A stretch of 64,000 nt of DNA from a virus (IMGVR_UViG_3300029288_000078:54733-118732); one strand, 5' to 3'; counted from the stretch's first letter, positions 6,479 through 61,594 are shown. Translations and numbers: made by a program. Notes: a model not told the origin generated them from the sequence alone.

Positions 6479-6751
6479 TTACTTTTTAACGGCAGGCAAT
6501 GTTGGCTCTAAAGTTTTCTTTAATTCGTCGATCTCAGCCTGTCTCGCAGCTGCTAATCTTTCATCCTGCTCTTTTGCTAACTTGTCATATGCAGTACTAA
6601 TATCAATAGAATCATTAACCGAATTATTAAGCTGATTAACACCTTTTTTCCAGTTTGCTTTAATCTTCGCTTGCCGTGCCTGATCTTTAATAAACCAAGT
6701 AATAAATAAATTTACCAACGGAGTAACGAGATTTAATATTGCTACTATCAT
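6479..6751 (-). CDS. Small membrane-anchored coiled-coil protein (possible lysis accessory)
   Basis: N-terminal hydrophobic helix then charged coiled coil; overlaps stop of upstream lipoprotein gene. Confidence 0.5.
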   Translation of the reverse strand: MIVAILNLVTPLVNLFITWFIKDQARQAKIKANWKKGVNQLNNSVNDSIDISTAYDKLAKEQDERLAAARQAEIDELKKTLEPTLPAVKK

Positions 6752-7407
6752 TGTTCTTGATATCCTCTCGTGGTTATACGGTGTACTTTGCCAGACTTAA
6801 GCCCAACTGCCCGATATACACAATCTCCAGTGTTCATTAAATAATAACAATAAATGCCTGTACACTCCATCGGATTACAACCTTCTCTTGCTACTACGTC
6901 ACTACCTTCCGATAACTGAATCATTTGCTTTAAGCCTGCCGGAGATTGACACAATGTTGCACCAACCGTTTTAATCGTTACACCATCACACGTGTTATAA
7001 GCTTCCATGTTTTCTTTTTCACTAGTAAAATCTATAACAGCACTTTTAATAGCGCCCAGTTTTGTCAGACTCTCTACCTTCATTAAACAACTGCCAACGT
7101 TTTCTACTAAAGGACGGGGTTGATAAACAAAAACATAAGGATTTGTGGTTGGACTAAAAATCCTAACACGCCTATGACAAGTAGTAATAAATAAACGCTC
7201 AGTATCTTTTGGTAAGGTAAATTTAAATTCTCTATAAGCTTTGTGTGGTACTACTGCCAATCCTTTATACGCTACACCGTCAATGCTAAATTCAAGATCG
7301 GCTGGGATTTTGAATGTGTCTAAAGAACTACCCATTGCTTGCGATATGTAAATTGGCGCTGGTGTTGCACAGGAAATTAACAATAAAAATAACGGAATAA
7401 ATCTCAT
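6748..7407 (-). CDS. Cys-rich lipoprotein
   Basis: Signal peptide with lipobox MRFIPLFLLLIS-C; multiple Cys in mature part. Confidence 0.7.
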   Translation of the reverse strand: MRFIPLFLLLISCATPAPIYISQAMGSSLDTFKIPADLEFSIDGVAYKGLAVVPHKAYREFKFTLPKDTERLFITTCHRRVRIFSPTTNPYVFVYQPRPLVENVGSCLMKVESLTKLGAIKSAVIDFTSEKENMEAYNTCDGVTIKTVGATLCQSPAGLKQMIQLSEGSDVVAREGCNPMECTGIYCYYLMNTGDCVYRAVGLKSGKVHRITTRGYQEQ

Positions 7408-7416
7408 AAACCCTCC

Positions 7417-55903: not shown

Positions 55904-56236
55904 ATGAAGAACGAATTGATAGCGAGATGTGTGCACCATGTAAATAATAAAATTTGCGAACTGAATAACGAGCAAACAATTGCATGGGAAGATACACCAA
56001 AGCACATGCAAGACGGTTTAATATCGGCTATAAACGACAATCTATCGCCAAGAGAAGGTCATATTAATTGGATGATGAACAGACTAGCAAACGGCTGGAA
56101 ACTTGGTGCAGAAAAAAGTATTGAAAATAAAATTAGCCCATGTTTAATTCCCTATGAGGAGTTGCCTTATGCACAAAGAATTAAAGATTCAGTGAGGCAA
56201 GGCATAGTGGAATTTTTAAAGGAGGTACAAGAATGA
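55904..56236 (+). CDS. RyR-domain protein
   Basis: HINWMMNRLANGWKLG.EK....KISPCLIPYEELP..QRIKD matches RyR repeat. Confidence 0.75.
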   Translation: MKNELIARCVHHVNNKICELNNEQTIAWEDTPKHMQDGLISAINDNLSPREGHINWMMNRLANGWKLGAEKSIENKISPCLIPYEELPYAQRIKDSVRQGIVEFLKEVQE

Positions 56237-58261: not shown

Positions 58262-58591
58262 TTGAAAAGCAATAGAAATATATTTTCGGCGTATGATGTT
58301 GATAAAGTAGAGGAATTTGAATGGTGGTTTTACGATAATGTTGAATCATACAGAGCTATTCAGGATTGTATTACGATATATGGACGGGTGGCGAAAAAGA
58401 AGTTCAGTTTGCGGATGGTATTGGAGATGTTGCGGGCTGGAATTGATATTCGGTGGCGGCACATTGAAGTTTCTTTAAACAATGATTTTATTCCTATGTT
58501 ACAGCGCAGATTAGAAATGGATAGGCCGGATTTAATGGAATACTTAACAGCGATCAGAAAGAGTCATACAAAAAAAGGAGGTTTGGAATGA
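58262..58591 (+). CDS. Hypothetical phage protein
   Basis: TTG start with GGAGG SD; FSLRMVLEMLR...SLNNDFIP; coupled to dehydrogenase. Confidence 0.6.
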   Translation: MKSNRNIFSAYDVDKVEEFEWWFYDNVESYRAIQDCITIYGRVAKKKFSLRMVLEMLRAGIDIRWRHIEVSLNNDFIPMLQRRLEMDRPDLMEYLTAIRKSHTKKGGLE

Positions 58592-59439
58592 TGATAGTGG
58601 GTGTAATTGGTATTGGGGTTGTAGGAGGTGCGATCAAAAAGAGCTTTGAACTACATGCGCCTTCGGTGGATTTGCGCTGTTATGACAAGACTGGAGAGTA
58701 TTCTGGCGAGGAAAACAGGTTACGGATATTGGATGCTGAGGTTATTTTTGTATGTGTTCCTACTCCGACTCAACACGGCGGGCAAAACTTAGAAGCGCTT
58801 TGTAATGTTATAGAAATGTTAAACACTGCAAAATATCAGGGTGTGATTTGTATTAAGTGTACGGTATTGCCCGGTATGTGTGAATATATTGCCAGTACTT
58901 ATCCTTTACGTATTGTGCATAACCCTGAATTTCTTACAGCTGCTAAACCATATGAAGATTTTATGAATCAAAAAAGTATTATTATGTCTGGAAAACTTCA
59001 GGATACGAATGAGGTGCAAAGGATTTATGATCACTTGTTTGGATCACATGCTTTGTATGATTTCTATCAAACTTATGCTGATTATAAAGTAACTGAATTA
59101 GCGAAATATTACAGTAATTGTTTTTTAGCAGTGAAAGTAACGTTTGCGAATGAGATGTATGATTTGTGCAATATGATTGGAGCTAATTATGATGATGTGC
59201 GCACGGCGGCAATAAGTCAGGGATTAATTGGAGCTAATCATACTAAGGTACCGGGAACGGATGGAAAAACGGGATACGGGCTTGGGTGTTTGCCGAAAGA
59301 GACACAAGCATTATCAACCTTTTGTAGTATGATTGGATTACAACAAGAAGTTTTAAATGCAGCTATGCTTGGCAATACAAAAAGAAGAAGTTTTGATTCA
59401 CATTGTAGAGAAATTAATGAAAAGGAGATTGTTATATGA
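58588..59439 (+). CDS. ugd: UDP-glucose/GDP-mannose dehydrogenase family protein (lacks C-terminal domain)
   Basis: GIGVVG Rossmann; FVCVPTP; HNPEFL; ELAKY..N.FLA.KVTFANE; catalytic-Cys motif GYGLGCLPKE. Confidence 0.85.
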   Translation: MMIVGVIGIGVVGGAIKKSFELHAPSVDLRCYDKTGEYSGEENRLRILDAEVIFVCVPTPTQHGGQNLEALCNVIEMLNTAKYQGVICIKCTVLPGMCEYIASTYPLRIVHNPEFLTAAKPYEDFMNQKSIIMSGKLQDTNEVQRIYDHLFGSHALYDFYQTYADYKVTELAKYYSNCFLAVKVTFANEMYDLCNMIGANYDDVRTAAISQGLIGANHTKVPGTDGKTGYGLGCLPKETQALSTFCSMIGLQQEVLNAAMLGNTKRRSFDSHCREINEKEIVI

Positions 59440-59798
59440 AATTTTTATTTGGTTTAGTGAGTTTGTGTTTGGCTAGTTCAGCAATGGCATTTGATACACA
59501 TGGCAGCATTGTTTTAGGCCAACAGTATGAACCATTATTGCGAAAAACAGTTCCTAAAGCAGGGCTCGTTACTTCGGTCGGGCTTGGGTTAGGCATTGGT
59601 GTTTGGAGTTATATTGGCGTTGGTCGTACATTGGAAGATGATGAATGGTCATCTGCTGCTATTGGTGCCGATTGGTCTTTTGCTCGTCTTACTTTGGGTA
59701 CTTCATATACAGTATCAAGAGATTTAAAACGATTTAATATTGAAAAGCAAGATAATACTCAATTGATCGGTATGACTGCGAAAGTACGGCTATGGTAG
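59436..59798 (+). CDS. Secreted, small beta-barrel-like outer-membrane protein
   Basis: Signal peptide ending SAMA-F; amphipathic beta strands; C-terminal aromatic residue (AKVRLW). Confidence 0.55.
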   Translation: MKFLFGLVSLCLASSAMAFDTHGSIVLGQQYEPLLRKTVPKAGLVTSVGLGLGIGVWSYIGVGRTLEDDEWSSAAIGADWSFARLTLGTSYTVSRDLKRFNIEKQDNTQLIGMTAKVRLW

Positions 59799-60088
59799 TG
59801 AGTTTATGTTTTGCTAATCTTTTATCTTTGTGGATGATGGGCGCAGAACAGCGAGATAATTTAGTAGTGAGTACTTTGAAGCAGGCTAATTATGCAGGGC
59901 AGGAATTAGTAATTAATGTAAACAACCCTTGGTATTCTCCTGTTTCTTGTCCTCGTATTTATGCTTTTTTAGATAAGTGGACAATTCCTGGTTTGAAATA
60001 TCACAACATGCCAACCTCGACTATGACTCACGGGCGATGTGGCGTCGAGGCTTGTACCTGTACAAAGAAAACAATTTGCGTTCTATAG
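59792..60088 (+). CDS. Small hypothetical protein in glycan operon
   Basis: Overlap-coupled ORF; hydrophobic N-terminus, Cys-rich end. Confidence 0.45.
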   Translation: MVVSLCFANLLSLWMMGAEQRDNLVVSTLKQANYAGQELVINVNNPWYSPVSCPRIYAFLDKWTIPGLKYHNMPTSTMTHGRCGVEACTCTKKTICVL

Positions 60089-60097
60089 GATAAGGTC

Positions 60098-61594
60098 ATG
60101 ATTGTTTTGCCGCAGCCTCCTAACGATAAGCAAAAATATTTATACACAGAATCTAATCGTTTTTTATTTTATGTTTTTGCAATATCTAGTTCATTGTTAT
60201 TGTTTTCTGGAATGTATTTATTTACATGGGCAAATCCTGCCTTAATAGTTTATGGATTGTTTGTTACAGTTAATGTTTTGTATTTAATTATTTCATATGT
60301 CATTGGTGTTTTTGGCAAGGGTTTTGATTTAGATGCACATAATTCCATTATTACTAAATACAATAAAAGAGATTCATCTGTTGATATATTTCTTCCTATT
60401 GCAGGTGAAAGCATAGAAGTTATTGCTAACACTTGGAAGTATGTAGCTCAATTAGATTGGCCAAAAGAGTTATTAAAAGTACACATATTAGATGATGGAT
60501 TTTCTGATGCAGCTAGAGATTTAGCTATCACTTTTGGCTTTAATTATATTCGCAGAGATGATAGACCGCACTTGAAAAAAGCAGGTAATGTCAGAAATGC
60601 TTTTAAGCAAACTAGTGGAGACTTTATAGTTATATTGGACGCAGATTTTTGTCCACGTCCTGATTTTTTACATGAAACAGTACCGTATATGTTGAGTGAT
60701 GAAAAAATTGCAATAGTACAGACTCCACAGTTCTTTGAAGTAAAACCTGAGCAAACTTGGGTTGAACAAGGCGCAGGATTTATCCAAGAGTTATTTTATA
60801 GACTGATACAGGTAAGTAGAGATACTTGGGGAGCCAGTATTTGTGTTGGCAGTTGTGCGCTATATAGACGTTCAGCCTTAGAACCAATGGGCGGTACTTA
60901 TCCAATTGAGCATAGCGAGGATTTGCACACGGGATTATCAATGTTAATACAAGGACTTAGAGTTAAATATATTCCAATTTCAGTTGCTGCGGGTGTTTGT
61001 CCTGATTCCCATCAGTCCTTTTTTGTACAGATGTATCGATGGTGTACAGGTTCTACTTCGCTGTTATTTAATAAAATGTTTTGGACTGCTAAATTAACAT
61101 TCATGCAACGGCTTTGTTATTTATCTGGCATGGGATATTACGTTTCTACAGCATTGGGCATTTGGTTATCGGTATTGCCCAGCGTCATTATGGTTTGGTT
61201 TTTGCCAGAAAAACTGCTCTGGTATACTATGTTTTTCTATACCCCTTCTTTTTTGTTTGGCACCTTATTCATGAGATATTGGAATAAGTCTCGCGGAAAT
61301 ATTATTCACGCTCTGATGACTCGGCAAATTTCTTATTATTCTCATTTCTTTGCTTTAAAAGATAAGTTATTTAAATCTACGATGCCTTGGATTCCTACAG
61401 GCGCGGTAACTAATAACAGTCGGTTTCGGACTGCTCGATATTTGATGTGGGCATGGAGTTCTGTAGTAACTGTTTTAGTTGTTTCTGGCGCATTTTATCA
61501 TATGGATGGTTTGCTTGATTATGACTTTTATCCTACCCTGTTTTTTTGCGGTCTAAACTACTGGATAACTTCGACTATTCTTCGCGACCAATAA
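60098..61594 (+). CDS. Processive GT2 glycosyltransferase, cellulose synthase (BcsA)-like, no PilZ domain
   Basis: VDIFLP..GE, HILDDG, KKAGN, ILDADF, VQTPQFF, SEDL and QMYRW (D,D,D,QxxRW); 2 N-terminal and several C-terminal TMs. Confidence 0.9.
   Translation: MIVLPQPPNDKQKYLYTESNRFLFYVFAISSSLLLFSGMYLFTWANPALIVYGLFVTVNVLYLIISYVIGVFGKGFDLDAHNSIITKYNKRDSSVDIFLPIAGESIEVIANTWKYVAQLDWPKELLKVHILDDGFSDAARDLAITFGFNYIRRDDRPHLKKAGNVRNAFKQTSGDFIVILDADFCPRPDFLHETVPYMLSDEKIAIVQTPQFFEVKPEQTWVEQGAGFIQELFYRLIQVSRDTWGASICVGSCALYRRSALEPMGGTYPIEHSEDLHTGLSMLIQGLRVKYIPISVAAGVCPDSHQSFFVQMYRWCTGSTSLLFNKMFWTAKLTFMQRLCYLSGMGYYVSTALGIWLSVLPSVIMVWFLPEKLLWYTMFFYTPSFLFGTLFMRYWNKSRGNIIHALMTRQISYYSHFFALKDKLFKSTMPWIPTGAVTNNSRFRTARYLMWAWSSVVTVLVVSGAFYHMDGLLDYDFYPTLFFCGLNYWITSTILRDQ

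Follow-up and report, generated by a model that had tools for sequence, protein, structure and literature searches.

A viral gene cluster encoding a putatively processive, PilZ-less glycosyltransferase and a predicted mini-porin: a candidate module for glycan synthesis and export

Can a virus provide an infected cell both with a synthase for a surface polysaccharide and with the pore through which the polymer leaves the cell? This question is raised by a cluster of plus-strand genes in the virus record IMGVR_UViG_3300029288_000078, of which a stretch of 64,000 nucleotides (nt), referred to here as the window, was analysed (bases 54,733-118,732 of the 182,732-bp IMG/VR record, which CheckV rates as complete). 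The cluster encodes a membrane-bound glycosyltransferase of family 2 (GT2), a small protein predicted to form part of an outer-membrane barrel, and a short relative of uridine diphosphate (UDP)-glucose dehydrogenase (UGDH). We propose that these genes may constitute a minimal glycan export module, composed of a synthase that is independent of cyclic di-GMP (c-di-GMP) and a porin, with an optional C6-oxidation step, by which an infected Gram-negative cell would extrude a polymer. We consider the chances that this proposal is correct to be about even. The genes in question are the following (positions counted from the first base of the window; aa, amino acids; ORF, open reading frame):

58588-59439, plus strand: short dehydrogenase of the UGDH family, 283 aa, recognised by Pfam PF03721 and PF00984
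59436-59798, plus strand: putatively secreted six-strand beta protein, 120 aa, recognised by its signal-like N-terminus, structure model and fold matches
59792-60088, plus strand: 98-aa ORF of doubtful status, an ORF only, with neither family nor homologue
60098-61594, plus strand: predicted processive GT2 synthase/translocase, 498 aa, recognised by its motifs, TIGR03030 and a BcsA-like model
58262-58591, plus strand: upstream 109-aa ORF, whose stop overlaps the start of the dehydrogenase gene by 4 nt and which possibly belongs to the same transcription unit

The initial annotation of this locus had ascribed to the GT2 the full D,D,D,QxxRW signature of processive enzymes and the lack of a C-terminal PilZ domain, and both statements hold. 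The motifs ILDADF (residues 179-184), SEDL (273-276) and QMYRW (311-315) are present, and the residues D132-D133, D181-A-D183, S273-E-D275 and Q311 with R314-W315 are, save for Ser273, invariant in 15 homologues. A PilZ domain (PF07238) was detected neither in the protein nor in the entire phage genome, and BcsB (PF03170) has no match anywhere in that genome. Among the NCBIfam models, TIGR03030 (CelA) fits best with an E-value of 3e-63, although its score of 213.9 bits lies far below the cut-off of 699.1 bits; the models for NodC, PgaC and MdoH match much more weakly. Furthermore, four Pfam GT2 families are matched with values down to 1e-22, and sequence matches to BcsA in the PDB reach 1e-47.

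The AlphaFold model of the GT2 (predicted local distance difference test, pLDDT, 89; predicted template modelling score, pTM, 0.88) contains two N-terminal and four C-terminal transmembrane (TM) helices which flank the glycosyltransferase domain (predicted helices 21-45, 47-71, 335-357, 370-395, 441-468 and 475-496), together with amphipathic interface helices. Foldseek aligned the model to residues 167-682 of E. coli BcsA (5e-25), with the alignment stopping where PilZ starts, while plant CesA, CslA, hyaluronan synthase (HAS) and CslF6 ranked lower. BcsA of E. coli and Cereibacter sphaeroides (PDB 9b8v, 4p00, 4hg6) is thus the best match in sequence and fold, sharing the GT-A domain with the D, DxD, (S/T)ED and QxxRW motifs as well as the core of channel helices. 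The phage GT2 is, however, just 21-24% identical to BcsA and lacks PilZ, the first two BcsA helices and a BcsB partner. At the position of the gating loop, the loop 425-440 contains the residues W431-I-P-T-G435, of which W431 and G435 are invariant in the 15 homologues; they presumably resemble, but are not equal to, the FxVTxK-type gating-loop motif.

Taken together, the motifs and the model support an enzyme built as a processive beta-glycan synthase that would translocate its chain through the membrane and that has no c-di-GMP brake. The earlier description of the enzyme as c-di-GMP-independent is hence borne out at the level of a predicted architecture without a receptor for this messenger. 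Since the tests for PilZ, for BcsB and for the equivalog score all fail, the protein is not a BcsA proper; judged by its sequence, it is instead a member of the family of the chlorovirus protein A473L, which is introduced below. Its sugar donor and the linkage of its product cannot be read from the sequence.

Homologues of the GT2 amount to more than 2,000 proteins, and most of the best 120 are about 500 aa long and 45-65% identical to it. Every long context that was opened for the closest relatives was viral: these comprise phage contigs of 15-178 kb, a contig of a "Bacteroidetes" metagenome-assembled genome (MAG) with TubZ and phage-like genes, and a 753-kb contig with genes of giant-virus type. 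Scanning IMG/VR with an alignment of the GT2 revealed 48 loci, including four records of 288-331 kb that were taken as chlorovirus; the IMG/VR relatives discussed here come from this alignment-based scan, as a single-protein scan for close relatives gave none. The chlorovirus GT2 is encoded on the reverse strand near 228 kb by an ORF of 517 aa (counted from the first ATG) and shares 46% identity with the phage protein over 496 residues (E-value 6e-155). We take it to be A473L of the chlorovirus PBCV-1. Fungal GT2s are likewise about 46% identical to the phage enzyme. In 185,579 species genomes, the best cellular matches show about 40% identity, if MAG contigs of uncertain origin (one of them a mis-binned phage) are set aside, and belong mostly to Actinomycetota, chiefly Streptomyces and Kitasatospora, with some Saccharibacteria. 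By sequence, the phage GT2 is therewith part of a large, virus-rich family of proteins of about 500 aa which includes chlorovirus, fungal and Streptomyces GT2s.

Two observations on this family may be added. Saccharibacteria MAGs (L061:3372-6572, L077 and L096 in our locus numbering) encode GT2 homologues of about 1,060 aa with two matched GT2 stretches each and may thus possess tandem or fused double synthases. The fungal relatives brought a mixed-linkage glucan into consideration as a product, and this candidate was set aside: the switch-motif peptide of AfTFT1, a characterised mixed-linkage glucan synthase (10.64898/2026.09.17.752320), is absent from the fungal homologues retrieved, in a comparison covering 510 proteins in total, even if four mismatches are allowed, and we therefore claim no mixed-linkage product.

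A phylogeny of the GT2 had been suggested as a check on its identity. We inferred a quick maximum-likelihood tree that was rooted on Salmonella BcsA and the enzyme of the cyanophage S-CBWM1. The tree separates a clade of actinobacterial and Saccharibacteria GT2s (Shimodaira-Hasegawa-like approximate likelihood ratio test, SH-aLRT, 98) from a clade of phage, giant-virus and fungal GT2s (SH-aLRT 94), and the latter contains both the phage GT2 and the chlorovirus enzyme of A473L type. Within it, a group of giant-virus and fungal proteins (L008, L025-L034, L040, L044 and L048; fungal protein P0120 and others) has an SH-aLRT of 100 and is nested among phage lineages. This nesting hints at a transfer between phages and eukaryotic viruses or fungi. 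Given a brief tree search and long branches to the outgroup, the order of branching should be read as a lead and not as a result.

The 120-aa protein had been described as secreted, with amphipathic strands and a terminal tryptophan, and all of these traits were recovered. Its N-terminal hydrophobic helix ends in A-M-A, as read without a dedicated signal-peptide predictor. In the structure model (pLDDT 86), this signal helix is followed by six antiparallel strands of 11-15 residues each, in which hydrophobic residues alternate with small or polar ones, and a tryptophan is placed at the chain end in 25 of 29 family members. The fold matches of the model are mainly outer-membrane barrels or fragments thereof, namely PagP, OmpF, the intimin beta-domain, KdgM, PagL and the cyanophage family Phage_OMP. 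The last of these (PF24653 / IPR056410) resembles the model in shape (TM score 0.63), and PF24653 has no sequence match in the 120-aa protein or in the phage genome. The protein is matched by no model of Pfam, PHROG or NCBIfam, and no Pfam family matches any of the 29 family members. A profile search against 1.8 billion representatives returned 365 clusters with a typical size of about 113-127 aa, the best 150 of which are almost all 105-137 aa long, with none fused to another domain. As an observation apart from this search, region 497-631 of a 635-aa GT2 protein in the AlphaFold database (A0A0G1RJW4) weakly resembles the six-strand protein (TM score 0.54 by query) and may be a fused form.

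Since six strands cannot close a membrane barrel, self-association of the 120-aa protein was modelled. The predicted homodimer reached a score of 0.52, compared to 0.01 for the best of three controls. This mark was attained by 20 of 30 solved one-chain pairs and by one of 23 solved single chains, counts that hold roughly because an alignment of our own was used. The contacts agree in at least 95% between runs and the partner has a pLDDT of at least 81. In the predicted complex, the two copies are joined by pairing of strand 1 with strand 6 at both interfaces, and a closed 12-strand barrel results. The model supports self-pairing of the protein without proving binding. A comparable arrangement has been described for a family of cyanophage proteins that resemble outer-membrane proteins (OMPs), in which six-strand barrel fragments of about 120 aa are predicted to form 12-strand dimers and occur in loci for phosphate acquisition and virion assembly (10.64898/2026.10.24.761521). 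Overall, the 120-aa protein looks like a subunit of an outer-membrane barrel and like a conserved partner of the GT2, as judged from the models and from its gene neighbourhood.

This neighbourhood was examined in 51 non-redundant viral loci that were found via the GT2. A homologue of the small protein is encoded directly upstream of the GT2 in 29 of them. The two genes are at most 15 nt apart in 25 of these 29 loci and overlap in nine, and the spacing in relatives without the 98-aa ORF is 9-74 nt. The pairwise distances in one protein correlate with those in the other (r = 0.68; none of 2000 permutations reached as high a value), from which we infer that they are inherited as a unit. If clusters of the small protein are taken as the starting point, a GT2 follows immediately downstream in two of three sampled loci. 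The 22 viral loci without the small protein comprise 11 from the giant-virus clade, six from the actinobacterial clade, three deep branches and two phage-grade loci, while a single one of 78 cellular GT2 loci contains it and is a mis-binned phage contig. Fungal loci lack it as well. That the small protein is found only where an outer membrane must be crossed is the main argument for its role as an exit pore.

Conservation of the operon in related phages had been proposed as a further check. What recurs is the core of small protein and GT2, to which the dehydrogenase is an accessory, and conservation does not extend to the 98-aa ORF. The latter, which had been counted as an operon member, is absent from the closest relatives and fills what is the second-largest spacing of the core genes in the loci compared. 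Neither a homologue nor a family nor a confident fold could be assigned to it, and a search of the protein atlas gave matches at chance level. Other loci carry different ORFs at the same junction, namely a 311-aa ORF with a DPPY methyltransferase-type motif (L020:2327-3262) and a 61-aa ORF that looks DNA-binding (L012:4819-5004), both as read by eye. The 98-aa ORF is thus probably a lineage-specific insertion outside the module, possibly translated by coupling. The arrangement had also been reported as four overlap-coupled genes. The four ORFs are indeed present at their positions, and the dehydrogenase and 120-aa genes overlap by 4 nt and the 120-aa gene and the 98-aa ORF by 7 nt. The GT2 gene, however, starts 9 nt past the 98-aa ORF; because of this spacing the two are close but not overlap-coupled.

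The dehydrogenase had been assigned to the UGDH family and, in part, this assignment stands. The NAD-binding domain (PF03721, 5e-13) and the central catalytic domain (PF00984, 2e-17) are present, but the entire UDP-binding domain (PF03720) is missing from the protein and from the whole phage genome, and the score with TIGR03026 is 129.7 bits, below the cut-off of 189.8 bits. Alignments with UGDHs in the PDB stop before the C-terminal domain. The phage protein has in common with Ugd, TuaD and AglM (PDB 4a7p, 3gg2, 1dli) the Rossmann NAD domain as well as the central domain in which the catalytic Cys, Lys and Asn reside, but it is about 150 residues shorter, and about 27 residues are missing from its N-domain. 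In public gene calls, its start is placed one codon further downstream, which gives 282 aa. Its 120 best relatives, including a Tupanvirus protein, are 178-291 aa long with a median of 269. As they are equally short, the missing domain is not an artefact of truncation. In these 120 relatives, GxGxxG, NPEFL, K173, N177, C234 and K237 are kept in at least 97% (99-100% for C234, K173 and N177, and 97% for the three GxGxxG glycines); at position 238, 94% of them have Asp and the window protein has Glu. By sequence, the enzyme is therefore best described as a viral short form without the UDP-binding domain in which the catalytic residues are kept. Because of the missing domain, synthesis of UDP-glucuronate by this enzyme is not assured.

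The short dehydrogenase nevertheless recurs beside the GT2. The order short UGDH, small protein, GT2 is found in the window, in the loci L002, L004 and L038, and on the contig of protein P0017, while L056 differs in that its short UGDH is set back upstream from the small protein and GT2 by about 1 kb more. Among the 13 closest GT2 relatives, at least nine are encoded on a contig that also carries a short UGDH, as judged from opened loci and same-sized contigs, and ten short-UGDH matches share the size of their longest contig with GT2 matches. Of 78 cellular GT2 loci, 32 encode a full-length TuaD/AglM-like UGDH on the strand of the GT2 and no more than 5 kb away, and one further locus does so on the opposite strand; these 33 loci are actinobacterial (L074 and 32 others among L062-L136). 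This recurrence in phages and in Streptomyces supports a product that is related to or derived from uronic acid. The suggestion that the polymer possibly contains uronic acid thus fits the neighbourhood of the family, although the enzyme in question lacks the UDP-binding domain and is accessory. As further observations on these genes, the short UGDH of L028 (7325-9106; IMG/VR 3300049489_000410) contains a LAGLIDADG intein, whose match begins near residue 226, immediately ahead of the catalytic-Cys motif, and a gene for a GalE-like nucleoside diphosphate (NDP)-sugar epimerase (6546-7409) is located between the GT2 and the short UGDH of the same locus.

How might these proteins act together? In the proposed module, the GT2 would reside in the inner membrane, polymerise a UDP-sugar into a beta-linked chain and thread the chain through its own six-helix channel. 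Because no PilZ brake is present, it should be active once it is made. The 120-aa protein would be exported and inserted into the outer membrane, where at least two copies may close a barrel of at least 12 strands that releases the chain, as suggested by its fold, the dimer prediction and its distribution. The short dehydrogenase, which in this phage lineage seems to be translationally coupled upstream, would probably supply or create a C6-oxidised sugar of the uronic-acid type; owing to the missing UDP-binding domain, this step is the least secure. The benefit for the virus can be guessed to lie in an altered surface of the infected Gram-negative cell, for instance in blocking other phages; masking of receptors, aggregation and shielding of the cell had been put forward as possible effects.

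Several points weigh against this proposal. The six strands of the 120-aa monomer cannot form a membrane barrel alone, and the dimer that would do so is a structure prediction. By eye, the terminal Trp is out of register with the canonical C-terminal OMP motif. Neither a tetratricopeptide-repeat (TPR) scaffold nor any other periplasmic scaffold was found among the neighbouring ORFs scanned, so that passage of the chain across the periplasm and the peptidoglycan is left unexplained. The phage-grade GT2 loci L049 and L051 have no small protein, and in L143 (3001-4293) the small protein is followed by a 309-aa protein without a Pfam match instead of a GT2. Finally, the dehydrogenase is without the domain in which all solved UGDHs hold UDP, and the genome has no separate copy of this domain. 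Concerning L143, a protein with a weak match to Wzy_C is encoded upstream of the small-protein gene, and the mini-porin may there serve other glycan enzymes.

Some of these points would be accommodated if the GT2 made a glucan that is retained in the periplasm or envelope, similar to osmoregulated periplasmic glucans, and thereby remodelled the envelope, with the small barrel having a separate role in receptor masking or in the uptake of small solutes. We regard this as unlikely. It agrees with the lack of a periplasmic scaffold or of a large porin of 16-18 strands among the window ORFs scanned, with the occurrence of small phage OMPs in contexts unrelated to glycans (10.64898/2026.10.24.761521) and with the family member in L143 that is not placed beside a GT2. 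It does not explain, however, why the genes for the small protein and the GT2 are tightly linked, often overlap and co-vary in their distances, or why the small protein is consistently lacking where the host is devoid of an outer membrane, and MdoH-type models match the GT2 weakly (1e-5 compared to 3e-63 for CelA). The GT2 might also be non-processive and transfer one sugar onto a lipid carrier for modification of O-antigen or lipopolysaccharide, as in GtrB-like seroconversion. Many phages modify O-antigen with GT2 enzymes, which speaks for such a role. Yet the protein has the QxxRW motif, six TM helices, interface helices and a loop at the gating position, it aligns over the channel core of BcsA, CesA and HAS, and no GtrA- or GtrC-like partner is present among the neighbours scanned, so that we hold this explanation to be very improbable.

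For the dehydrogenase, the possibility has to be weighed that it does not produce UDP-glucuronate at all, but acts on another substrate, such as C6 of an in-chain or non-nucleotide sugar, or that it is docked on the GT2 or on a host UGDH which would supply the UDP pocket. The UDP domain is absent across the viral short family including Tupanvirus, while the catalytic residues Cys, Lys and Asn persist, and the 4-nt overlap with the next gene suggests coupled production; both would be in line with this possibility. Its best family matches, on the other hand, are UDP-glucose 6-dehydrogenases of TuaD/AglM type, the cellular GT2 relatives cluster with ordinary full-length UGDH, and the epimerase of L028 implies nucleotide-sugar chemistry. 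On balance, a different substrate or a docked state is conceivable but doubtful. A role in glucuronate-type hypermodification of DNA, with a merely incidental position beside the GT2, has a precedent in that UGDH-like genes occur in cultured phages such as Bacillus phage SP-15, the DNA of which carries a modification that contains glucuronolactone. The dehydrogenase gene overlaps the small-protein gene, however, the order of the three genes recurs in the closest relatives, and a membrane-embedded synthase would be unable to glycosylate DNA, which leaves this role barely plausible. A more far-reaching version of the export module may also be formulated, in which a PilZ-less synthase and a dimeric mini-porin form an ancient viral two-protein trans-envelope machine that is ancestral to the A473L-type, giant-virus and fungal enzymes, the dehydrogenase docks on the synthase, and an acidic, glucuronan-like coat excludes competing phages. 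We consider this version distinctly unlikely as a whole.

The export module in its simpler form can be compared with several known systems. Synthase-dependent systems such as Bcs, Pga, Alg and Pel, with the porins BcsC, PgaA and AlgE, also combine an inner-membrane GT2 synthase with an outer-membrane beta-barrel as exit. In these systems, each porin consists of one chain with 16-18 strands and comes with a TPR scaffold, and gating is exerted by c-di-GMP. The phage module differs in that a six-strand subunit of about 100 residues would have to oligomerise, and in that neither a c-di-GMP receptor nor a scaffold was found. Among the chlorovirus proteins, A473L shares 46% full-length identity, the length class and the topology with the phage GT2, but it belongs to a virus of eukaryotes and lacks a partner of the small-barrel type. 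A473L has been annotated as 'CESA CelA-like' with six TM domains and is functionally uncharacterised (PMC5408694, PMC9614988). A functional precedent is offered by the chlorovirus hyaluronan system, in which a virus-encoded processive GT2, HAS A98R, acts together with the UGDH A609L and the GFAT A100R (a glutamine:fructose-6-phosphate amidotransferase); these genes are expressed early and the polymer coats the infected cell (PMC5408694), and for A609L, UGDH function has been demonstrated (reference 21 of PMC5408694). The locus had been interpreted as a bacteriophage analogue of this system. The combination of GT2 and UGDH fits, but the phage GT2 is 46% identical to the other chlorovirus GT2, taken here as A473L, and not to HAS, which is a more distant GT2 (Foldseek E-value 1e-13, 12-13% identity). 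Moreover, the chlorovirus hyaluronan genes do not form an operon, and the phage dehydrogenase, unlike A609L, has no UDP-binding domain.

Two further systems involve related enzymes. Synechococcus phage S-CBWM1 is a cultured phage with an annotated cellulose-synthase-like GT2, gp158 (L138:2580-5932, 724 aa), and this was the only "cellulose synthase" found in a cultured phage. It represents a different family with a different partner, as it shows 30% identity, serves as an outgroup in the tree and is preceded by a gene annotated as coding for a membrane protein of a multidrug-resistance efflux pump and not by a small barrel. The GT2 clusters of Streptomyces and Kitasatospora are among the nearest cellular relatives (about 40% identity) and are linked to a UGDH, but they belong to a monoderm host, contain no small barrel and encode a full-length UGDH. 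In Streptomyces eurythermus (L074:4902-10855), the order is GT2, a GH26-like protein, a PMT_2-like membrane protein and UGDH. With these neighbours, an assignment of the Streptomyces relatives to the cslA-glxA locus was rejected. We know of no characterisation of this GH26/PMT_2/UGDH cluster, and met none in literature searches that were aimed at other topics. For the module of synthase and mini-porin, our full-text searches of the literature brought up no description.

Regarding the genomic surroundings, the module sits within a long run of small plus-strand genes, and genes for portal, tail and baseplate are present in the window. The best cultured relative of the portal protein is that of Myxococcus phage Mx1, with an identity of just 24%, and a megablast search of the region against cultured phages gave no match. 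Shine-Dalgarno sites are strong for the dehydrogenase (AGGAGG) and the 120-aa gene and weaker for the GT2; for the 98-aa ORF, none was found. The upstream 109-aa ORF has no Pfam match, is unlike the ORF upstream of the UGDH in L004 and is not conserved. A promoter scan detected no sigma-28-type promoter on the plus strand near the operon, and scans for sigma-70 promoters and terminators around it gave signals at or below chance. In the same block of small genes, a 110-aa ORF (window 55904-56236, plus strand) matches the RyR domain (PF02026, 6e-9).

If the export module operates as proposed, no smaller system would be known for the synthesis of a polysaccharide together with its transport across both Gram-negative membranes, and the c-di-GMP control to which the bacterial systems for cellulose, poly-N-acetylglucosamine and alginate are subject would be dispensed with. 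The module would also be a phage counterpart of the polymer coating of chlorovirus-infected cells and could offer a compact cassette of two or three genes for polymer production. Furthermore, the chlorovirus A473L family would thereby gain its first assigned function, as would two viral families that lack annotation, namely the six-strand mini-porin and the UGDH without UDP-binding domain. The hint from the tree that the giant-virus and fungal enzymes lie within the diversity of the phage enzymes bears in addition on gene flow between phages and eukaryotic viruses.

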